Virus record (IMG/VR): IMGVR_UViG_3300045988_123958
Length of the DNA stretch: 14,203 bases
Source: a virus
Strand: one strand, 5' to 3'
Part shown: positions 890 through 13,109 of the stretch, piece after piece
Position numbering within the stretch: position 1 is the first letter of the stretch
How the letters are laid out: each line of letters starts with the position of its first letter
The notes under the pieces: model-generated
What the model saw: the letters and a program-made list of their open reading frames with translations, nothing else
What the model was told of the DNA's origin: nothing
Databases searched by the model: none
Position numbers and translations under genes: made by a program

Positions 890-1015
890 GAAACTCGGGC
901 TGCCCCCCCCAGCCGTAGGCAGCCCGGCCATTATACCACATTTTCCGATCGGTGTCAATAGGCAAAATGTACAAAAAAAATCAGCAGGTTTTAGTTAACC
1001 TGCTGATTGAATATT
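890..1015. promoter_or_regulatory. Cassette copy A: GC hairpin (897-904 / 919-926) + leftward consensus promoter (TATAAT 930-935, TTGACA 953-958) + bidirectional terminator (981-1006)
   Basis: Homologous to the cassettes at 3130, 5660, 7925 and 10330. Shared core ccggccATTATAccaca..N..TGTCAAtaggcaaaat..A-run..hairpin..T-run. Stem gggctgcc/ggcagccc. The plus-strand partner promoter is degenerate here. Confidence 0.6.
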
Positions 1016-1425
1016 TATGCAAGAAATGCGCTTACAATTTCATCGAACACCGTGGGGTTAATGTCCACATTGAAAAAGCGGTCATTCTTTCTAAACGCCT
1101 TGGGGTAGCGTCTAATCAGTTCTGCACGCAACGCGCTTTCCGCGCCCTCGGCGGGGTAGTCTCCGCAAGAACGGATTCGATGAATCTCAACGCGCGTGAT
1201 AGAATATTTTTTCGAGTATTCGCCGATTTCATCACGCAAGCGCCCTACGACGTCTTTCGCGGAAGTGCCTACTTTATTAAATTCAAGTTTGTTGTTGTTG
1301 TAAAACTTGAAAAAGTAAACCGCTTGAACGTCTTTCAGATTCTCGCCACAATTAGGCATAAACTCCATTGAAACGGGCGGTCTACCGTCCTTAAATCGGC
1401 GTAGTTTAACAGTAATTTCTTCCAT
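1015..1425 (-). CDS. hypothetical protein (136 aa, MEEITVKLRRFKDGRPP...)
   Basis: The ORF-track start is a GTG; ATG at 1423-1425 preferred (GAGAGGA, 10 nt, ATG). Preceded by the conserved 27-nt leader element 1447-1473. Terminator 981-1006. Confidence 0.5.
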   Translation of the reverse strand: MEEITVKLRRFKDGRPPVSMEFMPNCGENLKDVQAVYFFKFYNNNKLEFNKVGTSAKDVVGRLRDEIGEYSKKYSITRVEIHRIRSCGDYPAEGAESALRAELIRRYPKAFRKNDRFFNVDINPTVFDEIVSAFLA

Positions 1426-1446
1426 TGGCACAAAATCCTCTCTATT

Positions 1447-1473
1447 GATTGAGGTTTACCATCGTTCTCTCAA
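1447..1473 (-). promoter_or_regulatory. Conserved leader element gattgaggtttaccatcgttctctcaa, copy 1
   Basis: 27/27 nt identical to 4679-4705. 7-bp inverted repeat gattgag/ctcaatc around a 15-nt loop in the DnaQ copy, one mismatch in this copy (gattgag/ctcaacc); sits in the 5' UTR just before the RBS. Confidence 0.55.
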
Positions 1474-1507
1474 CCATTATTTTTTGCACTTTTTGACTTG
1501 TTTTTGG

Positions 1508-1548
1508 GTGAAAAACCGCATTTTTCAGCGGTTTTTCACCCTTTTTTG
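1508..1548 (+). terminator. 13-bp stem-loop ggtgaaaaaccgc/gcggtttttcacc followed by a T-run on the plus strand only
   Basis: Strong hairpin. The U-tract is on the plus-strand side (ttttttgtcagttttt); on the minus strand it is followed by A-rich sequence. Likely a partial terminator or processing site between 1549..1956 and 1015..1425. Confidence 0.4.
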
Positions 1549-1956
1549 TCAGTTTTTGGGCTTTCGCTTCTGAATCAGGGTCAATTCATAGTCATTTTCG
1601 CCCACATGGAACGCAATCATGCGCTCAATGTTCGTGATTTCCACGTTTTCGCACGCATTTTCGCTGTTTTCACGCAAAAAAGTCGCAAGTTCAGCGATAA
1701 TCGAGCGTTTTGTGGGGTTTTCCTTGCGCTGTCGCTTCTCGAATTTATAAGCGGTCGGCGCTTTGCGTGTTCCGGTTTTAGAATACTTGTTAGCTTCTTT
1801 GAGCTTTTCCGCGGACAGGTCAAAGTCTTTGGCGATTCCATGGTCAATGTCATCATCGTCCATGAGAATTTCTTTTGCTTCCTCGGCAGTACAATCCAAC
1901 TTTTTCATCAGATTATCAATCTTTGCCTGAAAGTCTTTTTCACTCATTTTAGGCAT
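1549..1956 (-). CDS. hypothetical protein (135 aa)
   Basis: RBS GAAAGGGGG, 8 nt, ATG. Promoter 1981-2009 (TTGACA-17-TTATAAT). Confidence 0.6.
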   Translation of the reverse strand: MPKMSEKDFQAKIDNLMKKLDCTAEEAKEILMDDDDIDHGIAKDFDLSAEKLKEANKYSKTGTRKAPTAYKFEKRQRKENPTKRSIIAELATFLRENSENACENVEITNIERMIAFHVGENDYELTLIQKRKPKN

Positions 1957-1980
1957 TTCTTTTGCCCCCTTTCAAGTATG

Positions 1981-2009
1981 ATTATAACACCGCCGTCAGC
2001 AAATGTCAA
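1981..2009 (-). promoter_or_regulatory. sigma-A-type promoter, TTGACA-17-TATAAT
   Basis: rc of 2004-2009 = TTGACA; rc of 1981-1986 = TATAAT. Confidence 0.6.
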
Positions 2010-2019
2010 GAGAAATTTT

Positions 2020-2052
2020 TGGGAGCGCCTGATTTTTTTCAGGCGCTCCCCT
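2020..2052 (-). other. 3' stem-loop (11-bp stem gggagcgcctg/caggcgctccc, A7/T7 loop) after paralog A
   Basis: No U-tract on either side, so not a classical intrinsic terminator. Structurally equivalent to the hairpin at 4757-4790 after paralog B, with different sequence. Confidence 0.5.
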
Positions 2053-2055
2053 GAA

Positions 2056-2433
2056 TCAGTGGGCGAGACGGAAGTAGGACTTGCGCTTGTCCACAATCTT
2101 CTCGACGCCGTTCGCTTCAATCATCTGACGCAGAAGAGCGGAAACGCGCTGGTTGGTGAGGTCGCCCAGACCGTCCACATTCTTGATGAGGTCAGTCACG
2201 GTGTAGAGCTTGTCGGGGTTTGCGGTCATCTCAGCAAAGATAATGTCCTTATAGCCGTCGTTGGCAACCTGATTCGCGGTCGGCTTCTTGTCGCCCGCGT
2301 TCTTCTTGGCGAGCAGTTCAATCTCGTGATTGATAAACTCAACCATGGCGGGGTCAGCCTGAACCTCGGACAGTTTGAGCAGAGCCTCGAAACGGTCGCG
2401 CTTGGTGAGCTTCTTAACAGTAGAAGTAGACAT
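2056..2433 (-). CDS. hypothetical protein, paralog A (125 aa; C-terminus NQRVSALLRQMIEANGVEKIVDKRKSYF looks like a winged helix)
   Basis: RBS AAAGGAATTGATACT-ATG. Roughly 70% identical to 4795..5169. Promoter 2484-2512 (TTGACA-17-TATACT with TG). Confidence 0.65.
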   Translation of the reverse strand: MSTSTVKKLTKRDRFEALLKLSEVQADPAMVEFINHEIELLAKKNAGDKKPTANQVANDGYKDIIFAEMTANPDKLYTVTDLIKNVDGLGDLTNQRVSALLRQMIEANGVEKIVDKRKSYFRLAH

Positions 2434-2483
2434 AGTATCAATTCCTTTCTTTGGCGGTAGGTCGCTACCCTTTTGATATATTG

Positions 2484-2512
2484 AGTATACCACATTTTAG
2501 AGTGCTTGTCAA
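2484..2512 (-). promoter_or_regulatory. sigma-A-type promoter, TTGACA-17-TGGTATACT
   Basis: rc of 2507-2512 = TTGACA; rc of 2484-2489 = TATACT. Confidence 0.6.
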
Positions 2513-2722
2513 GAGGTTTCGCAAACTTTTCACACGAATTACTACCCCGACCTGACGGATAATTTATTGTTTGTTGATTCAATCTATTTGTCAGCGGAAA
2601 ACCGCGTCAAGGATAGTTGGTTCAATCAAACTCACTTTCGCGTTCAACGTTTGGCTTTACAACGTGGTGTATTATGTTTTCTTCCTGTACTTTCTCAAGG
2701 TCGCGCGCCCTTGGATTTCTTG

Positions 2723-2780
2723 GGCTACTCCCTCTTGACATTTTCTATTGTAGCACACTCGCTGGGATTTGTCAAGAGGT
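2723..2780 (-). promoter_or_regulatory. Promoter-only module 1: inverted repeat CCTCTTGACA-N-TGTCAAGAGG enclosing TTGACA(2770-2775)-17-TACAAT(2747-2752)
   Basis: Consensus promoter whose transcript begins AAAAUGUCAAGAGGGAG. No SD-led ORF for about 200 nt. Confidence 0.5.
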
Positions 2781-2915
2781 TTTCAAGAAAAAACTCATGA
2801 ATTTTTTCTTTTATCCCGTGCGTTCCGCTCCGAAGAGACCTTAACGTAATAGGTGAACGGTCTATTGCTACTTCCAACCGTAGCCCCACACCGACCTGTG
2901 GCTCAGGGGTTTCCC

Positions 2916-2963
2916 TCTTGACATTATTTATTGTAGCACTTTTCGCGCCACTTGTCAAGAGGG
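2916..2963 (-). promoter_or_regulatory. Promoter-only module 2: CCCTCTTGACA-N29-TGTCAAGAGGG, TTGACA(2953-2958)-17-TACAAT(2930-2935)
   Basis: Same architecture as module 1. A third, degenerate copy lies at 3040-3075. Confidence 0.5.
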
Positions 2964-3134
2964 AATTTCAAATTTCTTTGAAATTTTTTTTGGCTTAATC
3001 CTGATAGGAGCGACCCATCATTGAGCCATTCCCCTCTTGACATTATCCATTATAACAGATTGCCCACGGATTACAATTGACAAAATAACCAAATTACGGG
3101 AAAAAATTTTCTTCACTTTTGTGCAACTTTTCTC

Positions 3135-3163
3135 TTGACAAAATTGGCGGGGCGTGATATAAT
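3135..3163 (+). promoter_or_regulatory. Cassette B plus-strand promoter, TTGACA-17-TATAATGG, convergent with the minus promoter at 3202-3230
   Basis: Exact -35 and -10 hexamers at 17-bp spacing. Predicted transcript about 110 nt, from the hairpin at 3172-3198 to the terminator at 3253-3276. Confidence 0.5.
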
Positions 3164-3201
3164 GGTGAATTCGGCCCGCTTTGGGCGTTAGCGGGCCGGC
3201 C

Positions 3202-3230
3202 ATTTTATCACAAAAATTCACGTTTGTCAA
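3202..3230 (-). promoter_or_regulatory. Cassette B minus-strand promoter, TTGACA-17-TGaTAAAAT; transcript starts in the GC hairpin
   Basis: rc of 3225-3230 = TTGACA; rc of 3202-3207 = TAAAAT. Confidence 0.55.
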
Positions 3231-3244
3231 TAGGTAAAATAGAC

Positions 3245-3280
3245 AAAAAAAACTGCCCATTTTTGGGCAGTTTTTTATTT
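3245..3280. terminator. Bidirectional intrinsic terminator (A8, ctgccca/tgggcag, T6)
   Basis: Terminates minus gene 3279..3518 and the predicted plus-strand RNA. Confidence 0.7.
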
Positions 3281-3518
3281 AGTCCAGCAAGTTAATTTCG
3301 CCGGGAATTCTGAAAGAATCCGCGTCCAGCGTGGAATTATAGTCCTCGGTAAAGAGTTCAATCATTCCACATTCCATGATGTAATTCTGAACCGACCGCT
3401 GAACGTTTCTCCAAAGGTCAGTCTTTCGGCTTTCTGCACGGGCTTCCTTGACTTCCTTTATTTGGGCAATGAGTTCGTCCAATTCCTCGGTTGTCATGTA
3501 AGTGAAATCCAAATCCAT
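3279..3518 (-). CDS. hypothetical protein (79 aa), translationally coupled to 3521..3799
   Basis: The ATG lies 4 nt after the upstream TGA (GGAGAGTTTTGAAAATG), and the upstream stop is embedded in the SD. Confidence 0.55.
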   Translation of the reverse strand: MDLDFTYMTTEELDELIAQIKEVKEARAESRKTDLWRNVQRSVQNYIMECGMIELFTEDYNSTLDADSFRIPGEINLLD

Positions 3519-3520
3519 TT

Positions 3521-3799
3521 TCAAAACTCTCCTTTAATGGCTTCTTTCCACGCGTCCCAGCCGAACTTTTCCTTGCTATCCAGCTCCTTGCCAATGTCTT
3601 TTGCGGTCAGCAGGTCAAATTCGTCCGCAATTTCATCTTCAAAGTTTACCCAAGAGTCGTAAGTCTGAATAATGAGAACCTCGTCAGCTTCAAAGACGCC
3701 ACCACACTCGGCGCAGATAATATAGTCATGGTCGATTAAAATGCCCATGTGAGGGTCATTGTCATCAGGGACTACAAAAAGGACTTGTTTAGCAGTCAT
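3521..3799 (-). CDS. hypothetical protein (92 aa, one CxxC pair)
   Basis: Second ATG chosen (AAAGAGGTG, 6 nt, ATG). The first ATG lies in the conserved leader ACATCAAATGAAAG and has no SD. Promoter 3829-3857. Confidence 0.55.
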   Translation of the reverse strand: MTAKQVLFVVPDDNDPHMGILIDHDYIICAECGGVFEADEVLIIQTYDSWVNFEDEIADEFDLLTAKDIGKELDSKEKFGWDAWKEAIKGEF

Positions 3800-3828
3800 G
3801 TAAAACACCTCTTTCATTTGATGTATTA

Positions 3829-3857
3829 ATTATACCATAGGGAATAGGATTTGTCAA
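3829..3857 (-). promoter_or_regulatory. sigma-A-type promoter, TTGACA-17-TGGTATAAT; the -35 sits inside the inverted repeat gggaatagg/cctattccc
   Basis: rc of 3852-3857 = TTGACA; rc of 3829-3834 = TATAAT. Confidence 0.65.
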
Positions 3858-3876
3858 GCCCTATTCCCTATTTTTT

Positions 3877-4653
3877 TTAGCTCATGTTTATCATAGGATT
3901 TTCCTTAATGTTTCGCATGAGCGCACGCTGAAATTCGGTAGGCTTGGGACGTTCCACCGTGGGGGTTTTGAAAAGGGACTTTTCCATTTCCTTGTGCTGT
4001 CGGACGCAATAGCGCAGAATCTCAACTTCAATCAGAACGTCTTCAAGTCCCGTGTGGGATTCATCAAAGCTATCTTCACCGCTGATAAAGCGATAGAGAA
4101 TTTCTGCGGTAAAACGGAGCTGTCCGTTCTTGGTCTTGTAACCGTTCTTTTCGCAATAGTCGCGGTAAGTGGGCATTTTGCCCATAACCTGTCGCGCCAT
4201 TCGCAACGTGTCCCAAACTTCAAGGCCGTAGGGGAAGAAATAGCGATACTTGCTTTTCGTGTCCCATCTTTGCGCGTTATTACAGGCGTTAAGGTCGAAC
4301 CGCATATTGTGAGCGCAGACAAAAGAACAGTTATAACGCTCGACACATTCGCAGAACGCAAGACGAATTTCATAAAGGTCAGCCATAATGCGCGAACCGT
4401 TCTTAATATCCTCGATATAGCGGGGAATCTTGTCGGCGTAGTAGGCAGACCGCATGAGGTCGCGCTCGTAGCAGAAAATGTCGCGATTCACAAAAGAATG
4501 AGTTTCATAAACATTTCCCTTGGAATCAATGACCGCCCAACCAAAGTCGTAGGGAAGCACATTTGACATATCCAGCTTATCGCCGTCCTGAATGGTGTTT
4601 GCGGTTTCCGTGTCCAGCATAATACCGTAGTTTCTGCGCCTATCAATACCCAT
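3877..4653 (-). CDS. DEDDh-family 3'-5' exonuclease (DnaQ / RNase T-like)
   Basis: Exo I MLDTETAN, Exo II CAHNMRFDLNA, Exo III ESHTGLEDVLIEV (His...Asp). RBS TAGGAGACGATAAA-ATG. 258 aa. Confidence 0.75.
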   Translation of the reverse strand: MGIDRRRNYGIMLDTETANTIQDGDKLDMSNVLPYDFGWAVIDSKGNVYETHSFVNRDIFCYERDLMRSAYYADKIPRYIEDIKNGSRIMADLYEIRLAFCECVERYNCSFVCAHNMRFDLNACNNAQRWDTKSKYRYFFPYGLEVWDTLRMARQVMGKMPTYRDYCEKNGYKTKNGQLRFTAEILYRFISGEDSFDESHTGLEDVLIEVEILRYCVRQHKEMEKSLFKTPTVERPKPTEFQRALMRNIKENPMINMS

Positions 4654-4678
4654 TTTATCGTCTCCTATTGGAAAAGTA

Positions 4679-4705
4679 GATTGAGGTTTACCATCGTTCT
4701 CTCAA
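4679..4705 (-). promoter_or_regulatory. Conserved leader element, copy 2 (identical 27 nt), at the 5' end of the exonuclease mRNA
   Basis: Lies between the promoter's -10 (4717-4722) and the RBS. Identical to 1447-1473. Confidence 0.55.
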
Positions 4706-4716
4706 TCTCTGATAAT

Positions 4717-4745
4717 AGTATAGCACTTTGCTATTGGTTTGTCAA
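4717..4745 (-). promoter_or_regulatory. sigma-A-type promoter, TTGACA-17-TATACT
   Basis: rc of 4740-4745 = TTGACA; rc of 4717-4722 = TATACT. Confidence 0.6.
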
Positions 4746-4756
4746 CAGTTTTTTTG

Positions 4757-4790
4757 TAGGGCAGGGGATTTTTTTTGTCCCCTGCCCTTT
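4757..4790 (-). other. 3' stem-loop (gggcagggga/tcccctgccc, T8 loop) after paralog B
   Basis: Same position and shape as 2020-2052 but different sequence. The U-tract is on the plus-strand side only. Confidence 0.5.
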
Positions 4791-4794
4791 TCCC

Positions 4795-5169
4795 TTACGC
4801 GCGGGAGAAGTAGGACTTGCGCTTGTCAACCGTCTTGACAACCGCGTTGGCTTCAATCATCTGACGCAGAAGAGCGGAAACGCGCTGATTGGAATACTCC
4901 GCAAGCTCGGGAACGCCCTTGATGAGGTCGGTCACGGTATACAGCTTGTCAGGGTTTGCGGTCATCTCGTCCAGAATGACCTGCTTCACGGCATCATTCT
5001 CCATCTGCTTGGCCGTGGGCTTCTTGTCGCTCGCGTTCTTCTTGGCGAGCAGTTCAATCTCATGCTCAATGAACGCCACCATATCAGGATTCGCCTGAAC
5101 CTCGCTCATTTTGAGCAGAGCCTCGAAACGGTCGCGCTTGGTGAGCTTCTTAGTAGTAGAAGTAGACAT
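4795..5169 (-). CDS. hypothetical protein, paralog B (124 aa)
   Basis: Same RBS and start context (AGAAAGGAATTGATACT-ATGTCTACTTCTACT) as paralog A. Promoter 5221-5249. Confidence 0.65.
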   Translation of the reverse strand: MSTSTTKKLTKRDRFEALLKMSEVQANPDMVAFIEHEIELLAKKNASDKKPTAKQMENDAVKQVILDEMTANPDKLYTVTDLIKGVPELAEYSNQRVSALLRQMIEANAVVKTVDKRKSYFSRA

Positions 5170-5220
5170 AGTATCAATTCCTTTCTGGTTTTTAAGACTG
5201 TCCTTGTCTTTGATGTAGTT

Positions 5221-5249
5221 ATTATATCATAGGTGGAGCAGGCTGTCAA
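5221..5249 (-). promoter_or_regulatory. sigma-A-type promoter, TTGACA-17-TATAAT
   Basis: rc of 5244-5249 = TTGACA; rc of 5221-5226 = TATAAT. Confidence 0.6.
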
Positions 5250-5364
5250 TAGGTTTTGCAAATTTTTTTAGGGGCGGTCGCGAGGTTTATTACTATACAT
5301 CTTGTTTATACCTACCTTTATCTATAATCATAAATCAATTCATTTTACTAAACCAAATCAGTCT

Positions 5365-5394
5365 TTAAGGCGGTGGACGAGCATCAGAAATCAT
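5365..5394 (-). CDS. 9-codon micro-ORF MISDARPPP-stop with its own SD and promoter (candidate leader peptide)
   Basis: Promoter TTGACA(5447-5452)-17-TATAAT(5424-5429), then GAGAGAGG, 8 nt, ATG. Ends in Pro-Pro-Pro-stop. Confidence 0.25.
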   Translation of the reverse strand: MISDARPPP

Positions 5395-5423
5395 CTTGTT
5401 TACCTCTCTCATTTGATGTATTC

Positions 5424-5452
5424 ATTATACCCTACGTTGAGCGGTTTGTCAA
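5424..5452 (-). promoter_or_regulatory. sigma-A-type promoter, TTGACA-17-TATAAT, driving only the micro-ORF and leader
   Basis: rc of 5447-5452 = TTGACA; rc of 5424-5429 = TATAAT. Confidence 0.55.
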
Positions 5453-5460
5453 GGGGTTTT

Positions 5461-5574
5461 TCAAACTTTTTTGAAAGTTTGTTCGGCACGCCACGCTTGG
5501 AACATTCCGTCGGATTTTGGTATAATGGTCAAGGGAACTGCCTTTCCGCAGGTCTTACTCTTTCCTCCTGACAT
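5461..5574 (-). CDS. possible leaderless small ORF (37 aa, MSGGKSKTCGKAVPLTIIPKSDGMFQAWRAEQTFKKV)
   Basis: ATG 5 nt after the -10 TATACT (5580-5585; -35 TAGACA 5603-5608). No SD. The ORF track extends it upstream through the promoter. Confidence 0.25.
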   Translation of the reverse strand: MSGGKSKTCGKAVPLTIIPKSDGMFQAWRAEQTFKKV

Positions 5575-5666
5575 TATGTAGTATAGCAGATTGGTAATGA
5601 TTTGTCTATTGGCAAAATGACCAAATAACGGGAAAAAATAAAACTGAAATTTGTGCGAAATTTCTC

Positions 5667-5695
5667 TTGACAAAAATGCTGGCGGGGTGTATAAT
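5667..5695 (+). promoter_or_regulatory. Cassette C plus-strand promoter, TTGACA-17-TATAATGG
   Basis: Exact hexamers at 17-bp spacing, convergent with 5734-5762. Confidence 0.5.
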
Positions 5696-5733
5696 GGTAA
5701 ATTCCGGCCGTAGCGCGCGGAAACGGCCGGCCA

Positions 5734-5762
5734 ATTTTATCACATTTAGATGGTTTTGTCAA
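5734..5762 (-). promoter_or_regulatory. Cassette C minus-strand promoter, TTGACA-17-TAAAAT
   Basis: rc of 5757-5762 = TTGACA; rc of 5734-5739 = TAAAAT. Confidence 0.55.
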
Positions 5763-5780
5763 TAGTCAAAGTAAACAAAA

Positions 5781-5812
5781 AAATCTCCCCACTTTTGGGG
5801 AGATTTTCTTTT
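5781..5812. terminator. Bidirectional intrinsic terminator (atctcccca/tggggagat)
   Basis: A-run before, T-run after. Abuts the stop of 5811..6068. Confidence 0.7.
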
Positions 5813-6068
5813 AGCCAATCACATTGACCTCGGTTTTGACAGGCGTTACCATCTTGTCGCGCGAGAACTCGCGAACCTGACCCGTTTCAAGATTCACCGC
5901 GTAGCAATACTGCGAACCTCTCGACCGAACGAACGGCGTGTTGTTGTTGCTGTCAATTTTGAGATACATTCCCATACCGACGCCATTGGAACGCGGGGTG
6001 GTGAATGTGCCACCGCTGAGAACGTTGATAATCTGGAACTGACCCTTAGTGCCAAAATTTACTTTCAT
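5811..6068 (-). CDS. hypothetical protein (85 aa), translationally coupled to 6083..6397
   Basis: Second ATG chosen (GAAAGAGGAAATAAAA-ATG). The upstream gene's TGA stop lies in the SD. Confidence 0.55.
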   Translation of the reverse strand: MKVNFGTKGQFQIINVLSGGTFTTPRSNGVGMGMYLKIDSNNNTPFVRSRGSQYCYAVNLETGQVREFSRDKMVTPVKTEVNVIG

Positions 6069-6082
6069 TTTTATTTCCTCTT

Positions 6083-6397
6083 TCAAAATTCTTCTAAGAA
6101 ATGAATTGGTTTATGATTTGGTCTGAAAAATGCCATTCCCTCAGTATAAAGAGAATTAAACAAATCCGCGGACACTTCAAACCATTCTGTGCCACTAATG
6201 CGATTGCCTAACTCACTTAAAGTCAGATGACAAGAATTTTCAATGTCTCGACTTCCGGCGCAAGTGCTACGCATTATCGCTTTCGGATTGTGGCTATAAT
6301 AGCTTTTACGACGCTTTGCGAGGTTTTTAGTGCCGTCAGAATAGCCAACTTTAACCAAATGGCTATTGGTTAAATTATCCATCATCAAATACAGCAT
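6083..6397 (-). CDS. T5orf172 / GIY-YIG-like domain protein (104 aa)
   Basis: Pattern hLVKVGYSDG...LAKRRKSY...C-H...R...TEWFEV resembles the T5orf172/MUG113 signature. RBS GTGAGGTAAAA-ATG. No strong promoter of its own, so probably co-transcribed with 6554..6760. Confidence 0.45.
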   Translation of the reverse strand: MLYLMMDNLTNSHLVKVGYSDGTKNLAKRRKSYYSHNPKAIMRSTCAGSRDIENSCHLTLSELGNRISGTEWFEVSADLFNSLYTEGMAFFRPNHKPIHFLEEF

Positions 6398-6553
6398 TTT
6401 TACCTCACAACAGATGGGTATTGACCCAATCTGCGGTCACAAGTCCAATTTCCTTAGAGACAACCGTTTCATAACGGTAATTACCACCGGCAGTTCGTCC
6501 GGTCACTTTGGCGAGAACGCCAAGAGTAAGCCAAAAATAAGGCATCATTTTTA

Positions 6554-6760
6554 TCACCCCTTATTGCCGACCGAGAAGATGGACTGTAAAAGCACGAGAA
6601 TAATCCAAATTGCGAGTGCCAACTTCCACGAGAACACGATGACGAAAGTGCCGATTGTGGTGATACCAAGGGCGGGAAGAAGCCAACAGAGAAGCCAAAC
6701 CAGACCAGAGGTAAGCAGGAACGAAACAGCGAGAGACAGCAGAATCAAAAGAACAATCAT
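6554..6760 (-). CDS. small membrane protein (68 aa, two predicted TM helices)
   Basis: Hydrophobic throughout. RBS GAAAAGGGGAAAATAAA-ATG. Promoter 6790-6818. Confidence 0.6.
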   Translation of the reverse strand: MIVLLILLSLAVSFLLTSGLVWLLCWLLPALGITTIGTFVIVFSWKLALAIWIILVLLQSIFSVGNKG

Positions 6761-6789
6761 TTTATTTTCCCCTTTTCATTTGATGTATT

Positions 6790-6818
6790 TATTATACCAT
6801 TGGAGTAGGACTTTGTCA
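6790..6818 (-). promoter_or_regulatory. sigma-A-type promoter, TTGACA-17-TGGTATAAT
   Basis: rc of 6813-6818 = TTGACA; rc of 6790-6795 = TATAAT. Confidence 0.65.
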
Positions 6819-7316
6819 AGCCCTTTTCTCCAAAAGTTCCGAAAGTTTTTCGATAATGTTTACTGCGGTCGGGTCAATGGTAGCGCCCAAGTGCCAACCA
6901 TTCCGAACCTTTTCATTATCGTCAACCAAGATGGACACGTCGTAGCGGTCGCGCACGCTGTCGGCCTTAGTCGCGCCATACTGGACGCCGTGGAAGTGGT
7001 CATAGTGGAAGCCCTGTTCTTCAAGCCATGCGCGCTTTGCTTCACGAACGGCGTTCTTGTATTCCTCGCTCGAATCCTTAGAAAGCCAAGTGATGATATT
7101 GATTTCCCAACCCTCGGCGCGGAGAAGTTCGCAAACCTCATTCAGTTCAGCCATATCGCACATAGGAACGGCAGGCCGATAGGGCGTGGGGTTTTCCGAA
7201 CGGAGAAGCGCAAGCCAATCCTTGACGCCGTAGAGGTCAGCAATAGTGCCGTCCATGTCAAAGTTGATGGAGCGTCGAGTGGCTACAACGTGGGACTTGA
7301 TGTAAGTGATTTTCAT
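6816..7316 (-). CDS. HAD-superfamily 5'(3')-deoxyribonucleotidase-like protein (NT5C family)
   Basis: Motif I FDMDGTIADLYG (DxDGT), a distal SILVDDN acidic motif, length 166 aa. RBS AAAGGAAAGGGGTAAACACCA-ATG. Promoter 7348-7376. Confidence 0.6.
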   Translation of the reverse strand: MKITYIKSHVVATRRSINFDMDGTIADLYGVKDWLALLRSENPTPYRPAVPMCDMAELNEVCELLRAEGWEINIITWLSKDSSEEYKNAVREAKRAWLEEQGFHYDHFHGVQYGATKADSVRDRYDVSILVDDNEKVRNGWHLGATIDPTAVNIIEKLSELLEKRA

Positions 7317-7347
7317 TGGTGTTTACCCCTTTCCTTTACTATGCTTG

Positions 7348-7376
7348 TATTATACCACTATTGGATTTGCTTGTCA
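7348..7376 (-). promoter_or_regulatory. sigma-A-type promoter, TTGACA-17-TGGTATAAT
   Basis: rc of 7371-7376 = TTGACA; rc of 7348-7353 = TATAAT. Confidence 0.65.
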
Positions 7377-7407
7377 AGTGTTTTTTTCAAAATTTTCGCG
7401 GTCTTTC

Positions 7408-7551
7408 TCAATACCCGAAAGATAAGAAATTAAGCAAAATCAACACAGGAATAGCGTATATGATATTGAAAGAGTCCCACCCGAGACTTTCACAGGAATA
7501 AGCAAAAATAAAGCCAAAAACGAGGCCGAAAATGCCGATTAAAATAATCAT
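7408..7551 (-). CDS. 47-aa hydrophobic membrane peptide, ATGA-coupled to 7548..7811
   Basis: The start ATG overlaps the upstream TGA (ATGA at 7548-7551). SD TAGAGGA 6 nt upstream. The ORF track's longer start has no SD and overlaps the upstream gene by 45 nt. Confidence 0.45.
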   Translation of the reverse strand: MIILIGIFGLVFGFIFAYSCESLGWDSFNIIYAIPVLILLNFLSFGY

Positions 7552-7811
7552 TCTAAATCCTCTATATGACCATAGTGTTCGCTGATATGCCATTCAAGAT
7601 AGGTATTAGTCGCAATCTGAATTTCTCTATCTAACCAGTCGTAAAAGTCCTCGGGGTCGCGGGCCATGCGTTCATCAATAATATCAGCAAGAGAAACGCG
7701 GTGGGCGAGAAATTCCGAAATATCAAGAGAATCCATAGAAGAAAGAAGTTCTTCCACACATTCTCCGCGAGTAGAAAACTTTTCAGTAGAAAAATCGTGA
7801 GTGTAATACAT
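7548..7811 (-). CDS. hypothetical acidic protein (87 aa)
   Basis: RBS AAAGAAAGGGGATACAAACA-ATG. Promoter TAGACA(7876-7881)-17-TATACT(7853-7858). Confidence 0.55.
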   Translation of the reverse strand: MYYTHDFSTEKFSTRGECVEELLSSMDSLDISEFLAHRVSLADIIDERMARDPEDFYDWLDREIQIATNTYLEWHISEHYGHIEDLE

Positions 7812-7929
7812 TGTTTGTATCCCCTTTCTTTACGGTAATTATAGTATAGCAGATTATTACATTCTTGTCTATTGGTAAAATGCCCAAATTCGGGAAAATA
7901 ATTAGTTGGACTTTTGGCTAAATTTCCTA

Positions 7930-7958
7930 TTGACAAATTGCTGAGATGGTGGTATAAT
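7930..7958 (+). promoter_or_regulatory. Cassette D plus-strand promoter, TTGACA-17-TGGTATAATGG
   Basis: Exact hexamers and an extended -10 TG, convergent with 7995-8023. Confidence 0.5.
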
Positions 7959-7994
7959 GGAATTTCCGGCCGTGGCAGGCGCAAACGGCCGGCC

Positions 7995-8023
7995 ATTTTA
8001 GCACACTATTGGATTTTTGTCAA
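7995..8023 (-). promoter_or_regulatory. Cassette D minus-strand promoter, TTGACA-17-TAAAAT
   Basis: rc of 8018-8023 = TTGACA; rc of 7995-8000 = TAAAAT. Confidence 0.55.
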
Positions 8024-8037
8024 TAGGCAAAATAAAT

Positions 8038-8082
8038 AAAATTTTGAGACGAGATTTGTTATCTCGTCTCAAAATATTTTTA
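8038..8082. terminator. Bidirectional intrinsic terminator (11-bp stem)
   Basis: AAAATTT before, AAAATATTTTT after. Abuts the stop of 8080..8532. Confidence 0.65.
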
Positions 8083-8532
8083 ACGTTCGGACACAATGCT
8101 GAGGTAGCGGACAATCATGTCCATTTCGCAACCCTTGTCCTGTTGGTCGCAAACCGCATAACCAATGAGTTCGCCGTCTGCGGTAATCGGATAAACGCCA
8201 TAAGTGTTATTGAAAATAAACGGCTTTCTTTCATATTCCCATTGGGTCGGAACATAGGCCGGATAGTTTTCCATACCCCGCAGTTTCACGGTAGTATCAT
8301 AGATTGCGATGGGACGCAGACCGGAATTCGACGCCATTGTAATAGCGGTTCGCAGAGCTTCTTCGGTCAAAGAGCCAAGTACCGAATATCTCTTGAAGCA
8401 AACGCAATCGTTGTCTTCAATGAAGATTTCGAGCGGGTCGCCCTCACGAATCTTCAAAATCCGGCGAATCTCTTTCGGAATGACCACACGTCCAATGTCA
8501 TCAATTCTGCGGATAATACCAGTAGCTTTCAT
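8080..8532 (-). CDS. AbrB/SpoVT-family transcriptional regulator with a C-terminal ~95-aa domain (SpoVT-like architecture)
   Basis: N-terminus MKATGIIRRIDDIGRVVIPKEIRRILKIREGDPLEIFIEDN closely matches the AbrB/SpoVT swapped-hairpin DNA-binding domain (compare AbrB MKSTGIVRKVDELGRVVIPIELRRTLGI). RBS GAAAGGGGAAAATTAAA-ATG. Promoter 8563-8591. Confidence 0.85.
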   Translation of the reverse strand: MKATGIIRRIDDIGRVVIPKEIRRILKIREGDPLEIFIEDNDCVCFKRYSVLGSLTEEALRTAITMASNSGLRPIAIYDTTVKLRGMENYPAYVPTQWEYERKPFIFNNTYGVYPITADGELIGYAVCDQQDKGCEMDMIVRYLSIVSER

Positions 8533-8562
8533 TTTAATTTTCCCCTTTCACTTGATACGTTA

Positions 8563-8591
8563 AGTATAGCAGAATAAAAGGCTTTTGTCAA
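8563..8591 (-). promoter_or_regulatory. sigma-A-type promoter, TTGACA-17-TATACT
   Basis: rc of 8586-8591 = TTGACA; rc of 8563-8568 = TATACT. Confidence 0.6.
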
Positions 8592-8596
8592 GCCCT

Positions 8597-9070
8597 TTAT
8601 TCAAGATTTTTGCTTTCCGCGACAAAATATTTTGCTTCATATTGATTGGCAATAGCCTTGACTTTTGCGCTTTCCTTTTGAGTTGCACAGTAAAAATTGA
8701 AAAGCGTATGTTTATCGCTCAATTCAATGTAAGAATGTGGAACGTCATGCAAATCAAAGTCAATGGTATTAGTGTATTTTGTCGGGACGGTAAGCTCGAC
8801 TTTCCATAATTTATCTTTGCGGGCTTTCTCTTCAATCCACTTGACAAAGTAAACGCCCACAAAATTACAGACGGCAGTAATAGCCATTTTTAACCAAATA
8901 GGCATACCGTCCGCGGAAGTCAGCACAATCACATAGGAATAAAAACCATAAGTGATGGCGTTGATAAGAGACGCGCTAACTTTTCCGCCGTTGACAGTCA
9001 AGATGCTTTTGATAGTTGACAGAATCACATTCACCGCCGTGCAAAGCGCGAACAGAAGAATTGTATTCAT
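8597..9070 (-). CDS. membrane protein (157 aa; about 3 N-terminal TM helices plus a C-terminal soluble domain)
   Basis: Second ATG chosen (GGAAAGGG, 8 nt, ATG). Promoter TTGACA(9113-9118)-17-TATTAT. Confidence 0.55.
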   Translation of the reverse strand: MNTILLFALCTAVNVILSTIKSILTVNGGKVSASLINAITYGFYSYVIVLTSADGMPIWLKMAITAVCNFVGVYFVKWIEEKARKDKLWKVELTVPTKYTNTIDFDLHDVPHSYIELSDKHTLFNFYCATQKESAKVKAIANQYEAKYFVAESKNLE

Positions 9071-9143
9071 TATTATCACCCTTTCCTTTTTCTATTATAA
9101 TAATATCATATTATAATAGAAATGTCAATAGAGAGTTTTTAAT

Positions 9144-9284
9144 TTACTCCTTTAATTTTTCTAATAGGTCATCAGCACATTCATAGCTGATGCTTCTGCG
9201 GTCGCGCGTTTCCCATACTTCATAAAGCTCATCTTCCGCGCGTTTTTCATATGGGTTAAAAGGCTTCTTTTTCTTACCGAACAT
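9144..9284 (-). CDS. 46-aa charged small protein (MFGKKKKPFNPYEKRAEDELYEVWETRDRRSISYECADDLLEKLKE)
   Basis: SD AAGGAGA, 9 nt, ATG. The start overlaps the last 11 nt of 9274..9612. The ORF track's 122-aa version overlaps the upstream gene by about 240 nt in another frame and has no start signals. Confidence 0.4.
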   Translation of the reverse strand: MFGKKKKPFNPYEKRAEDELYEVWETRDRRSISYECADDLLEKLKE

Positions 9285-9612
9285 TTTTCTTTTTCTCCTT
9301 TTCCTGTTTATTCCACATTCTATCAAAGAACGCATTTGCGAGAACACGCTTGTAAAGGTTGTCAGGCATGGGGCGCTCGCCGTGCTTGTTTCTCCAAATC
9401 GCGGTGATTTTATCAATATCCGCGATATAGGCGGTAATGAGTGTGCCGTCGGAAGCGCTACGAACGAGAAGAACACCTGTTGTAGTGATAGTGTAGAGAA
9501 CATCGTCCTCAACGCTGTCGATATATGGTTCGCCGATTCCTACATTATCGTAGATGAAGAGCAGGCGGTCAATGCGGTCTTGCGTGGCGTGTTTTGACAT
9601 TTTGATAAGCAT
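9274..9612 (-). CDS. hypothetical protein (112 aa, MLIKMSKHATQDRIDRLLF...)
   Basis: RBS GAAAGAGGTAAAACAA-ATG directly downstream of promoter 9650-9678. The ORF track's N-terminal 44 codons run through that promoter. Confidence 0.55.
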   Translation of the reverse strand: MLIKMSKHATQDRIDRLLFIYDNVGIGEPYIDSVEDDVLYTITTTGVLLVRSASDGTLITAYIADIDKITAIWRNKHGERPMPDNLYKRVLANAFFDRMWNKQEKEKKKNVR

Positions 9613-9649
9613 TTGTTTTACCTCTTTCTTTTCCTCTTGGATTGATTGT

Positions 9650-9678
9650 ATTATACCATATGGGGAGGGGCTTGTCAA
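9650..9678 (-). promoter_or_regulatory. sigma-A-type promoter, TTGACA-17-TGGTATAAT
   Basis: rc of 9673-9678 = TTGACA; rc of 9650-9655 = TATAAT. Confidence 0.65.
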
Positions 9679-9688
9679 GCCCTTTTTA

Positions 9689-9817
9689 TCAGAAATGATA
9701 ATTTCTGATGATGGCGTCGAACTTGGGAGCATGCGCAAGGGCATTATTTTTAGCTTGAATTTCTTTGCGGACTTCCTCGGCTTTGCGCGTCATTTCATAA
9801 GCATATTTAATTTCCAT
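9689..9817 (-). CDS. 42-aa small protein (MEIKYAYEMTRKAEEVRKEIQAKNNALAHAPKFDAIIRNYHF), not in the ORF track
   Basis: Own promoter TTGACA(9870-9875)-17-TATAAT(9847-9852) with the -35 inside the inverted repeat atagggc/gccctat. SD GGAAAAGGAGAAACACC-ATG. Confidence 0.4.
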   Translation of the reverse strand: MEIKYAYEMTRKAEEVRKEIQAKNNALAHAPKFDAIIRNYHF

Positions 9818-9895
9818 GGTGTTTCTCCTTTTCCTTTGATGTTTTCATTATAACATATAGGGCTTGTTTTGTCAAGCCCTATATGCAATTTTTTT

Positions 9896-10204
9896 TTAGC
9901 AGTAGGCCAGATTCCCGCGCGCCCAGCCATATACGCTGATTTGATTGCACGCCTTGCCAATTTCAAGCGCCTGCTTCTTGGTCTGCACCCTCTTGGACTT
10001 ATCAACGAACCAAGTATTGTTGCTATACCACACACCACAGTTTCCGCCGAAGTCCTTAACCGCGTTAATAGCTTCGCGGGCGGTCTTGCACTCTACGCCG
10101 TTGGTAGCGACCTGCCAGCCGGACTTGTAGTTGACTTTCTTGCCATATTTGAGCGTCATGCCGTCGTTTTCAGCGAGTTTGCGAATAGAACGAATGTTAA
10201 TCAT
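9896..10204 (-). CDS. hypothetical protein (102 aa)
   Basis: RBS GGAAAGGGATTTACAAC-ATG. Promoter TAGACA(10280-10285)-17-TATACT(10257-10262). Confidence 0.55.
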   Translation of the reverse strand: MINIRSIRKLAENDGMTLKYGKKVNYKSGWQVATNGVECKTAREAINAVKDFGGNCGVWYSNNTWFVDKSKRVQTKKQALEIGKACNQISVYGWARGNLAYC

Positions 10205-10329
10205 GTTGTAAATCCCTTTCCGGTTTGGTAGGTTTTCCTTCCCTTACTGTGATTATAGTATAGCACCGATTCGGGATTCTGTCTATTGACATTATGCACA
10301 AAGATTTGCCCCAAAAATTTGTGCAATCC

Positions 10330-10463
10330 GCCTATTGACAAAAACTCGGCGTGCCAGGTCCGTTCGCGCGCCGGCCGATTATACCACAAAGTTTTGAAAA
10401 TGTCAATAGGCAAAATATACAAAAAGCTCGGCAGGATTTTGTATATCCTGCCGAGCTTTTTTA
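10330..10463. promoter_or_regulatory. Cassette copy E: TTGACA-only plus-strand remnant (10335-10340), short GC stem, strong minus promoter TTGACA(10401-10406)-17-TGGTATAAT(10378-10383), bidirectional terminator (10425-10457 + T6)
   Basis: Homologous to cassettes A-D. The plus-strand -10 is missing. Also carries the inverted repeat ATGCACAAA...TTTGTGCAAT at 10295-10328. Confidence 0.55.
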
Positions 10464-12457: not shown

Positions 12458-12589
12458 AGTTGATTTACCTCTTTCTTTTTGATGATACAAGTATAACACA
12501 TGGCTACTGGATTGTCAATAGTCATTTTGCACAAATGTGATGGCGTAGTTTCGGGTATTTTGACGATTGTGCATTATGACGAAGTTTTG

Positions 12590-12650
12590 GCGAGAAATTT
12601 GTGCAAACTGCTGATTTTTATAAAACTCGGCTCGCCACTGCCGCCAGCGA
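12590..12650. other. Cassette-like remnant F: TTTGTGCAA motifs and a 10-bp GC stem ctcggctcgc/gcgagccgag
   Basis: Partial homology to the left part of cassette E (aaatttgtgcaa...aaaactcggc). No flanking promoters. Confidence 0.35.
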
Positions 12651-12835
12651 GCCGAGCAACGTTTACTGGGGTGTTTGTGTGGGATGGGGTTGTGCGTTCC
12701 GCGAAAGAGCGAGAGTAAGGCTGGTATACTCTCAGAGAATAAACGAGTTAGAACCTTATAGATGGGGGGTGTATTTCGGGAAAAAATTTTTTTTGATTTG
12801 TGTTTTTTCTTTTGCGTGGTCAAAACGCAATCTAA

Positions 12836-12991
12836 ATCAATTTTCAATTTCAAATTACGAAGAATAATTTAAATTTACTATAATCAATTTTCAATTTCAA
12901 ATTACGAAGAATAATTTAAATTTACTATAATCAATTTTCAATTTCAAATTACGGTTTAAAACAACAAATCAATTTTCAATTTCAAATCACG
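12836..12991. repeat. Iteron-like array: four direct copies of ATCAATTTTCAATTTCAAAT(T/C)ACG (24 bp) at 12836, 12883, 12930 and 12968; the first two spacers are identical
   Basis: Periods 47, 47 and 38 bp. AT-rich. Sits exactly where GC content drops. Identical spacers argue against CRISPR. Confidence 0.7.
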
Positions 12992-13109
12992 AAACAAAAT
13001 AATAATTTTAAATTACGATTTCTTTTTTCTACCTCTTTTAGGCTTCTCACCCCACATAAGAGTGTATAATCCAGAAGTAGCAGAATAAGTAGCTTTCTGC
13101 TGATACTTT

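Follow-up and report, generated by a model that had tools for sequence, protein, structure and literature searches.

A repeated intergenic cassette with predicted face-to-face promoters around a covarying GC hairpin in uncultured phage genomes

Introduction

Why would a phage set two strong promoters face to face across one short hairpin, and then repeat the arrangement several times in the same genome? The question is raised by a stretch of viral DNA of 14,203 nucleotides (IMG/VR record IMGVR_UViG_3300045988_123958), referred to below in its full length as the window, in which five intergenic sites carry a cassette made of a two-way intrinsic terminator, a leftward promoter, a GC-rich hairpin and, in three of the copies, a rightward promoter aimed at the same hairpin. 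The reading that we favour, tentatively and with slightly less than even confidence, is that of an operon-boundary cassette, which would give an early leftward transcript a protected 5' end and would throttle that transcript by means of a counter-promoter. This reading is built on the architecture of the unit, its conservation, the covariation of the stem, the occurrence of position-specific types and a link to a winged-helix gene; the start sites, both RNAs, the stabilising role and the interference are predicted from these features.

Architecture of the cassette

The original prediction placed five copies of the cassette at 890-1015 (A), 3130-3280 (B), 5660-5812 (C), 7925-8082 (D) and 10330-10463 (E), and all five are present. 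Here P- denotes the leftward and P+ the rightward promoter, each scored out of 12 against TTGACA...TATAAT. The terminator, claimed to be bidirectional in every copy, was indeed found on both strands in all five, at 979-1008 in A (12-pair stem), 3247-3276 in B, 5777-5810 in C, 8041-8075 in D and 10421-10461 in E (17 pairs). The leftward promoters had been described as perfect throughout, which holds for A (930-958, minus strand, TTGACA-N17-TATAAT) and E (10378-10406, minus strand), both 12/12, but not for B (3202-3230, TTGACA-N17-TAAAAT, with a TGTG -16 motif), C (5734-5762) and D (7995-8023), which are likewise on the minus strand and score 11/12 with a TAAAAT -10. The rightward promoters of B, C and D are as perfect as first described, each scoring 12/12 on the plus strand, at 3135-3163 (with the -10 lying 8 nt from the stem), 5667-5695 and 7930-7958 respectively.

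Between the two promoters lies the GC hairpin, at 3172-3198 in B (CGGCCCGC / GCGGGCCG, loop of 11 nt), at 5704-5730 in C (CCGGCCGT / ACGGCCGG) and at 7966-7992 in D, which has the stem of C (CCGGCCGT / ACGGCCGG) and a different loop; a covariance model scores these three at 63.6, 65.7 and 60.2 bits. The hairpins of A (896-926, CGGGCTGCC / GGCAGCCCG; 21.2 bits, plus strand) and E (10346-10374; 20.7 bits) belong to a second type that has no P+. It had been stated that both copies lost the plus-strand -10 and kept the rest; E does keep the plus-strand -35 (10335-10340) and lacks the -10, but in A the -35 is lost as well. A sixth, degenerate copy, F, was found at 12627-12656 (repeat family D19), where a 10-bp GC hairpin stands with no recognisable promoter on either flank and scores 16.8 bits (E 0.04).

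The unit also turned out to be wider than first described, the full cassette measuring about 250-300 bp, with conservation that reaches some 95-130 nt further left than the stretch first described. This leftward extension carries a TTTGTGCRA element and a second leftward promoter. The element stands 8-10 nt upstream of the P+ -35 and has five sites against 0.51 expected, all of them inside cassettes: in B it reads TTTGTGCAA (3118-3126, plus strand, 8 nt upstream of the P+ -35), in C TTTGTGCGA (5650-5658, plus strand, upstream of P+) and in E again TTTGTGCAA (10318-10326, plus strand), and copy F is flanked by inverted TTTGTGCAA sites at 12527-12535 (minus strand) and 12598-12606 (plus strand). 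The second leftward promoter, on the minus strand, lies at 3049-3076 in B (TTGTAA-N16-TATAAT; repeat D7), at 5580-5608 in C (TAGACA-N17-TATACT) and at 7843-7871 in D (TAGACA-N17-TATACT), where it is directly upstream of the gene at 7548-7811. The plus-strand T-tract that follows the terminator is not exclusive to copies with a P+, as the terminator of E, which has none, is also symmetric.

Conservation and classes of the cassette

The cassette recurs widely in relatives of the window, where its absence or lack of conservation would have counted against the original prediction: a profile built from the five copies with nhmmer gave 425 hits in 908 kb of related loci. Classes were defined on the 106 unique copies with a score of at least 60. 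In type 1, exemplified by B, C and D, P+ is followed by an interval of 36-38 nt, consisting of GGnAAATTY, an 8-bp stem, a loop of 9-11 nt and CC, and then by P-; in type 2, exemplified by A and E, the rightward -10 is absent and the unit is about 25 nt shorter. The type is fixed by position: in essentially all of the 13 close relatives, type 1 stands at B, C and D and type 2 at A and E, so that copies of the A and E kind form a conserved class at fixed positions and are not products of random decay.

As a promoter, P+ is itself conserved. Among 67 unique type 1 copies, assembled without selection on the promoter, 63 score 12/12 and the remaining ones 11/12, and the 17-nt spacer has 59 different sequences among 104 copies; P+ moreover has the TG of an extended -10 and shares the TTTGTnnA-N9 upstream element with P-. 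The TAAAAT form of the P- -10 is commoner in convergent copies (43/67 against 15/46), counts that are not phylogenetically independent.

When IMG/VR was scanned for convergent consensus promoters 30-44 nt apart, about half of the matches listed were GC-hairpin cassettes clearly homologous to those of the window, on contigs of many samples and including clades in which the neighbouring proteins are only 38-50% identical; the other half of the matches listed were A/T-rich, without a hairpin, and unrelated. Other clades have a strong promoter in a 'far' geometry (7-13 nt), a hairpin and a terminator, with no P-, and these stand-alone P+ units are predicted to yield RNAs of 60-90 nt (L150 3881-3975, L175, L148, L126, all labels of related loci). 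Three architectures are found overall, namely both promoters, P- alone, and P+ alone with hairpin and terminator.

Relatives whose neighbouring genes are 94-98% identical differ in the genes that lie between cassettes, and in one relative (L010) a C-type hairpin occupies the B site. By these signs the copies form a block of repeated homology and are exchanged from one site to another.

A scan of genome contigs also met the cassette in six contigs from metagenome-assembled genomes (MAGs) of inconsistent taxonomy, among them L188 (CAMELE010000001.1, 163,874 bp), which on its own was deposited as the MAG of an 'uncultured Mollicutes bacterium'; these contigs are most likely phage genomes mis-binned as bacteria. 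In a distant clade (L127, 780-1000), a perfect promoter and GC hairpin are followed by about 150 nt with long-range complementarity (GCATTTAGCCCCTCACAT ... ATGTGAGGGGCTAAA), a region that looks like an unannotated structured RNA.

Covariation and geometry of the hairpin

The original prediction took the differences between the stems of the window's copies, with pairing kept, as a sign of selection on the structure, and covariation in the relatives upholds this view and greatly extends it. Stem counts were made on 104 unique oriented type 1 cassettes, which hold 73 distinct hairpins with 43 distinct 5' arms. Their stem pairs comprise 818 Watson-Crick pairs and nine others, of which five are G-U on the plus strand, two are A-C on the plus strand and would read G-U on the minus strand, and two are other mismatches. 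In a 68-sequence alignment, 89% of cells are paired against 70% in shuffles, and 120 cells are changed on both sides against 38 +/- 4.5 in shuffles (0/500), a count that overstates the independent events because some of the diversity at a given site is exchange between copies; sliding the partner by 1-3 columns gives 10-37 such cells. Many arms are one fully compensated pair apart (CCGGCCGC/CCGGTCGC; CGGCCCGC/CGGACCGC; CGGGCGCC/CGAGCGCC/CGCGCGCC). Among the related loci L001-L014, in which the exonuclease gene is 90-98% identical, the stem at site B is CGGCCCGC, CGGACCGC or CCGGTCGC and that at site C is CCGGCCGT, CCGGTCGC or CCGGCCGC, fully paired in each case. Seen across these sequences, the hairpin is a polymorphic hotspot, partly by way of exchange between copies.

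The geometry is tight. Stems measure 7-10 bp and loops 7-13 nt, the -10 of P+ lies 7-9 nt and that of P- 2-4 nt from the stem, and the two -10 elements are 36-38 nt apart, which puts the predicted starts about 25-30 nt apart. Each -10 is followed by GG, the optimal discriminator, and the loop keeps CG[T/C] two to three nt before the 3' arm. The covariance model favours the plus orientation even in A, E and F (21.2 against 8.5 bits for A, 16.8 against 9.0 bits for F), and because the reverse orientation scores so much lower the element is not a symmetric palindrome. Type 2 hairpins persist and still covary, and because they do so without a P+ the hairpin must belong at least to P- or to the leftward transcript. 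The two outermost stem pairs also covary, though they are 4-5 nt from the P- -10 and probably lie upstream of the leftward start, outside the P- transcript, which suggests that the full stem matters to the plus-strand RNA as well, or to the DNA. The near-absence of wobble pairs has two readings, either that both transcripts need the stem or that selection acts on DNA.

Some other identities for the hairpin were considered and set aside. A solitary CRISPR repeat or an RNA anti-CRISPR is at odds with 43 different arms that vary even within one genome, and typical CRISPR repeats have loops shorter than 7-13 nt, a judgement made on the hairpins themselves, with no CRISPR-repeat database searched. 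A CsrA-type GGA motif in the loop is not conserved.

Predicted transcripts and a possible mechanism

Under the operon-boundary reading, the two-way intrinsic terminator would close the upstream operon, and P-, a strong sigma-A-type promoter with an upstream element and a -16 TRTG, would restart leftward transcription. The leftward transcript would begin inside or at the base of the GC hairpin, so that a stem-loop would stand at its extreme 5' end; the predicted leftward RNA indeed starts with a GC stem of 5-7 bp, and at the predicted 5' ends the fold of minimum energy is this hairpin. Such a stem-loop may be protective, in the way that stem-loops are known to slow 5'-end-dependent decay. In B, C and D an equally strong P+ would face P- and transcribe the same hairpin, and its transcript would go on to cross the -10, -35 and upstream element of P- and stop at the two-way terminator, which follows the P- -35 after 15-22 nt that include an A-tract. 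The footprint of RNA polymerase reaches to about +20, and because the predicted starts are only about 25-30 bp apart P+ and P- could not both hold an open complex. P+ would in this way throttle the operon-leading P- by competition and transcriptional interference.

A terminated plus-strand RNA of about 110 nt, antisense to the 5' end of the leftward transcript and to its promoter, was part of the original prediction, and the geometry of the cassette agrees with it. The predicted lengths are 111-116 nt for copies B, C and D and 105-118 nt in the main clade; in B the RNA would run from 3168 to 3282 on the plus strand (about 112 nt, by its predicted ends) and consist of the 5' hairpin, an A/U-rich middle and the terminator (z -6.27). 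Folded in silico, the predicted plus-strand RNAs have a GC hairpin at the 5' end and a terminator (z of -6.3, -4.4 and -6.8 against shuffles). Each would pair perfectly with two targets, the hairpin at the 5' end of the leftward mRNA and the terminator hairpin at the 3' end of the mRNA from the upstream operon. The hairpin followed by AUUUUA, the reverse of the TAAAAT -10, could end the plus-strand RNA early, which the higher share of TAAAAT in convergent copies would suit, although the loop is long for a terminator. A sigma-dependent pause at the reversed -10 was considered and rejected, as the non-template strand there reads ATTATA and is no -10.

Among the roles first proposed for the hairpin, that of a 5' stabiliser gains support, by analogy, from the hairpin geometry and from polypurine starts of the CAAGRGGGA type at the next downstream promoters in several clades, the effect itself being a prediction. 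A timing switch, also proposed, is neither favoured nor disfavoured by the sequence, in which P+ and P- belong to one host class.

Arrays of tandem leftward promoters on the minus strand occupy two long stretches that contain no convincing genes (2440-3130 and 5170-5660), at 2512-2484, 2775-2747, 2958-2930 and 3076-3049 in the one and at 5249-5221, 5452-5424 and 5608-5580 in the other. Several of them have ATGTCAAGAGGG (once ATGTCAGGAGGA) five nt after the -10, and these starts may represent either leaderless micro-ORFs of 18-39 codons (MSRG... or MSGG...) or 5' stabilisers of a polypurine, Shine-Dalgarno-like kind. The tandem-promoter arrangement also precedes the winged-helix gene in other clades. 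Another short sequence, AAATTTCGGGAAAA, was considered as a CodY-box-like site; it is no palindrome and, with 4 occurrences in the window against 1.5 expected, is not enriched.

A linked winged-helix gene and a candidate operator

The first protein gene downstream of the P- of copy B (2056-2433, minus strand) encodes a predicted winged-helix protein, and a paralogue (4795-5169, minus strand; repeats D5 and D8) holds the same place downstream of the P- of copy C. A homologue lies less than 1 kb downstream of P- in 43 of the 91 assessable type 1 cassettes, distant clades included, and in L150 it is found on the opposite side, where it follows the 'far' promoter. The protein database lists 1570 members of the family, none of them annotated, and sequence searches of Pfam, PHROGs and PDB returned phrog_19455, of unknown function, or nothing. 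An AlphaFold model (pLDDT 84.8) consists of N-terminal helices and a C-terminal winged helix, the best structural matches of which, weak ones (E about 1e-2), are repressors of the MarR, ArsR/SmtB, Fur/PerR and MecI types.

Between P+ and the second leftward promoter lies an imperfect inverted repeat, TTGCACAAA...TTTGTGCAA, which is widely conserved and may be regarded as a candidate operator, a lead and not a result. An extended scheme would make the cassette the operator and RNA part of a new early-gene switch with a multi-copy class of small RNAs of about 110 nt. In it, the hairpin with its partly conserved loop would be recognised by the winged-helix protein or by a host factor, TTGCACAAA...TTTGTGCAA would serve as DNA operator, and the level of the protein would decide which of two mutually exclusive promoters fires; we consider this scheme speculative and rather improbable.

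The same motif was met in other settings. In L083, L127 and L135, TTTGTGCAA lies inside the loop or stem of terminator hairpins adjoining cassettes, and in L150 the inverted pair TTGCACAAA...TTTGTGCAA itself makes up an 18-pair terminator-like hairpin.

Weighing the explanations

Several points weigh against the cassette being a throttled operon start. The start sites, the plus-strand RNA and the interference are themselves predictions from sequence. P+ and P- are of one host class, and the sequence explains no shift of their balance during infection; moreover, 1-3 further promoters serve the downstream genes without opposition from P+, and because of these the throttling of P- alone may alter output little. 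The stand-alone P+ units suggest a role of its own for the plus-strand RNA, unrelated to P-, and in clade L150 the 'far' promoter is aimed at the winged-helix gene and not at a terminator. The ratio of G-U to A-C pairs (5 against 2) does not identify the selected strand, the scarcity of wobble pairs fits selection on DNA as well, and the diversity of stems at one site among close relatives is partly copy exchange and not stepwise compensation, as L010 illustrates.

It is possible, if on the unlikely side, that the hairpin is a generic 5'-terminal stem-loop placed after strong promoters, that the convergent copies are promoter-hairpin modules fused on one palindrome, for example by inversion or by recombination between inverted copies, and that P+ fires without a selected role. 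Such an origin would agree with the existence of single-promoter units with a hairpin in both geometries, with the upstream element and the -35, -16 and -10 features that make P+ and P- look like copies of one module, with the swapping of copies between sites and with the absence of P+ at type 2 sites. A useless strong promoter that blocks an operon promoter should, however, decay or vanish, as at A and E, whereas P+ is kept at the B, C and D positions in all close relatives, stays at 12/12 in nearly all unique type 1 copies (the 63 of 67) despite its varying spacer, and is met again upstream of the winged-helix gene in clades whose proteins share only 38-50% identity. We regard it as rather unlikely, too, that the plus-strand RNA is the functional product, a multi-copy phage small RNA with a protein-bound or trans-acting 5' hairpin, to which the overlap with P- would be secondary. 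The stand-alone units of promoter, hairpin and terminator (about 60-90 nt, no P-), the fixed CG[T/C] of the loop, the plus-strand preference of the covariance model even for A, E and F, the covariation of the full stem, pairs probably outside the P- transcript included, and the link of the winged-helix gene to 43 of the 91 assessable cassettes all speak for such a product. Yet the stems differ widely within one genome and between near-identical phages, which would be unusual for a specific target, type 2 copies keep the hairpin without a plus-strand promoter, there is no Rfam match, and the winged-helix fold resembles, weakly (E about 1e-2), DNA-binding repressors of the MarR/ArsR/Fur/MecI kind.

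That the element acts as a palindrome in DNA, extruded or single-stranded and recognised by a recombination or replication protein, with the cassettes serving as sites of module exchange, seems quite improbable. Wobble is nearly absent (7 of 827 pairs), as would be expected if both DNA strands pair, but a need for pairing in both transcripts accounts for this equally well. The swapping of copies between sites and the variable gene content between cassettes in close relatives would suit it, and the same idea was raised for the stem-loop of the promoter-early stem-loop (PeSL) elements by the authors who described them (PMC2839356); against it, the strict spacing to both -10 elements points to transcription, and Pfam and PHROGs searches revealed no HUH or recombinase gene in the window. 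A protein-bound cruciform, one of the original suggestions, is disfavoured by the loop of 7-13 nt, which is too long for easy extrusion, and 8-bp stems with such loops are poor cruciform formers. A role in RNase III processing, of the kind found in early RNAs of SP82 and SPO1, is finally very improbable, whether for the hairpin or for the sense-antisense duplex. In its favour, early RNAs of SP82 are processed by Bs-RNase III (cited in PMC1935012), and the two predicted transcripts would anneal without a mismatch over their overlap of about 25-30 nt. RNase III needs about 20 bp, roughly two helical turns, however, and the hairpin alone, with a stem of 8-10 bp, falls well under this, so that the first proposal of such a site in the hairpin itself was rejected; the duplex of about 25-30 bp is at the lower limit of substrate length, and type 2 copies keep the hairpin without an antisense partner. 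The throttled, 5'-protected operon start thus remains the reading that we put forward, as a tentative one.

Genomic setting

The window is a dense run of short minus-strand genes, nearly every one of which has its own consensus host-type promoter and which have strong ribosome-binding sites. Promoter-like sites number 78 against 28.9 +/- 4.9 in shuffles, and exact TTGACA-N17-TATAAT occurs 16 times against none across 200 shuffles. Only four perfect sites in the whole window are on the plus strand, and three of these are the rightward promoters of cassettes B, C and D. Most of the promoters have a TG or TRTG -16 motif, which is typical of Gram-positive promoters.

A scan for tRNA and tmRNA genes found none in the window, and an Rfam scan at a permissive E-value gave no match, only sub-threshold overlaps that all fall on terminators; the best of those with a cassette (STnc230, 36.4 bits against a gathering score of 50, and Phe/Leu leaders) concern the terminator part only. 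Neither the whole window (megablast) nor one cassette (blastn) had a nucleotide match among 50,697 phage records. The exonuclease-like protein encoded at 3877-4653 has relatives among cultured phages only in Enterococcus Herelleviridae (38% identity), and the identical protein is encoded at the end of a contig of 142 kb that comes from a human-gut sample (MetaHIT); IMG/VR holds many relatives of the window, on contigs of 100-197 kb. The region looks like an early, host-polymerase-dependent block of a large virulent gut phage, the host of which is probably a Firmicute. A host of this kind would also suit the early gene at 8080-8532 (minus strand), which encodes an N-terminal DNA-binding domain of the AbrB/MazE (SpoVT) type (Pfam PF04014, E 2e-8; phrog_4681, E 2e-18) and is another candidate regulator.

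Other features of the window concern its plasticity and its ends. A small GIY-YIG-like gene with a T5orf172/MUG113 domain (6083-6397, minus strand; Pfam E 8e-7) is absent from four otherwise syntenic close relatives (L004, L005, L006, L009), the pattern expected of a mobile homing-endonuclease gene. Cassettes A to E are nearly evenly spaced, at 2272, 2532, 2261 and 2383 bp (repeat family D6; 896-10374), and units B and C share the further repeats D5, D8, D11 and D17 at 2532-2736 bp, which points to tandem duplication of a module of about 2.5 kb. At its start (1-77) the window has a perfect tandem repeat of 27 nt (TGTGGAAAATTGCGAGAGTGTGGAAAA, 2.9 copies), and several related contigs (L001-L003, L015) start near the same point; the repeat may mark a genome terminus, or an assembly break at the repeat. 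To the right of the degenerate cassette F an A/T-rich tandem array of 47-nt units occupies 12835-13013 (2.5 perfect copies and degenerate ones), beyond which the GC content drops from 0.41-0.48 to 0.29, and in the distant relative L082 a tandem array (TTTTTCAAATTCAATCCAA) likewise adjoins a cassette. Such arrays could be iterons or an origin, or a terminal-repeat boundary.

Implications

Very little is known of how the abundant uncultured phages of the human gut regulate their genes, and the cassette offers a compact, recognisable and widely conserved mark of operon starts in their early regions, which can guide annotation. It holds a strongly covarying structured RNA motif that is absent from Rfam, and the winged-helix link supplies a concrete candidate regulator. 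What follows the first description, namely the wider cassette, its spread over phage clades, the stand-alone rightward units, the winged-helix link and the resemblance to PeSL elements, goes beyond what that description contained. If the face-to-face arrangement works as proposed, it would amount to a minimal module of about 95 bp, repeated in nature, that unites promoter competition, an antisense RNA and a shared terminal hairpin; transcriptional interference could be studied on it as a model, and synthetic biology could use it as a part in Gram-positive hosts.

Comparison with known systems

To our knowledge, no counterpart of a convergent-promoter hairpin cassette has been described, and we know of no such cassettes described for SPO1. 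In its layout the window nevertheless resembles the SPO1-like phages (Herelleviridae), in which a host-takeover module lies in the terminal redundancy (PMC7414437, PMC10531801). Like that module, it comprises about 12-13 kb of many short early genes with strong host-type promoters and terminators between them, placed at the end of a genome of 140-200 kb, and its exonuclease-like protein has the Enterococcus Herelleviridae relatives noted above (38% identity). The likeness is one of layout, no gene of the SPO1 module having been recognised in the window. In the Kayvirus phage K, small RNAs are found in the terminal repeats, and no such cassette is described there (PMC9241854).

The 5' mRNA stabilisers listed in PMC3997798 include ompA and papA in E. 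coli and, in B. subtilis, the aprE leader and the polypurine element of SP82 (refs 95, 94, 109 and 179 therein), with Hue et al. 1995, Emory et al. 1992 and Hambraeus et al. 2002 among the works that it cites. As in those cases, a stable stem-loop stands at or within a few nt of the predicted 5' end, with structure rather than sequence conserved, and the promoters neighbouring the cassette start with polypurine CAAGRGGGA elements, a likeness to the SP82 stabiliser. Three features of the cassette go beyond what a pure stabiliser would need: its stem runs 2-4 bp past the point where the leftward RNA probably starts, its loop shows partial conservation, and it is kept in one orientation.

IS10 pIN/pOUT is a face-to-face promoter pair with a cis-antisense RNA. 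Other such systems are coliphage 186 pR/pL, Shigella RnaG/icsA and Ecl18kI (PMC5001618, PMC6593788, PMC2879508, PMC2760811), and interference between convergent promoters is established in systems other than the present one (PMC5001618, PMC6593788, PMC2879508). The cassette shares with these pairs the convergent promoters, transcripts that overlap at their 5' ends and, as one of the products, a short structured antisense RNA, and occlusion, collision or the dislodging of open complexes would be expected from its geometry. It differs in that the predicted starts are only about 25-30 bp apart, which is unusually tight, that the whole overlap is one palindromic hairpin common to both RNAs, and that each genome carries 3-6 copies of the unit, which is linked to a two-way terminator; in addition, the repressor that would set the balance is here only a candidate, and transcription is predicted from sequence.

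The closest described kind of element is the PeSL of T4-type phages, which consists of a terminator stem-loop, an A/T-rich region and a strong early promoter, is repeated in hyperplastic regions and mediates the shuffling of modules (PMC2839356, PMC4122927). PeSL-mediated excision and minicircles have been shown experimentally (PMC2839356, PMC4122927), whereas the cassette is known from sequence alone. No sequence relationship links the two, which belong to different phage lineages and host groups, and searches with blastn and megablast of 50,697 phage records gave no homology to T4-like myoviruses. The likeness lies in a short repeated intergenic cassette with a strong sigma-70-type early promoter (11-12/12 in every copy here), with a terminator stem-loop and an A/T-rich stretch upstream of the -35, both predicted from sequence in the present case, and in the presence of many copies in an early region that varies and is rich in small genes without known function. 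PeSL copies recombine with each other, and hairpin exchange together with variable gene content suggests that those of the cassette may do the same. PeSLs have neither a hairpin downstream of the promoter nor an opposing promoter, and it is these two parts, a covarying post-promoter hairpin and a predicted counter-promoter, that make up the conserved core of the cassette and that it adds to the PeSL plan.

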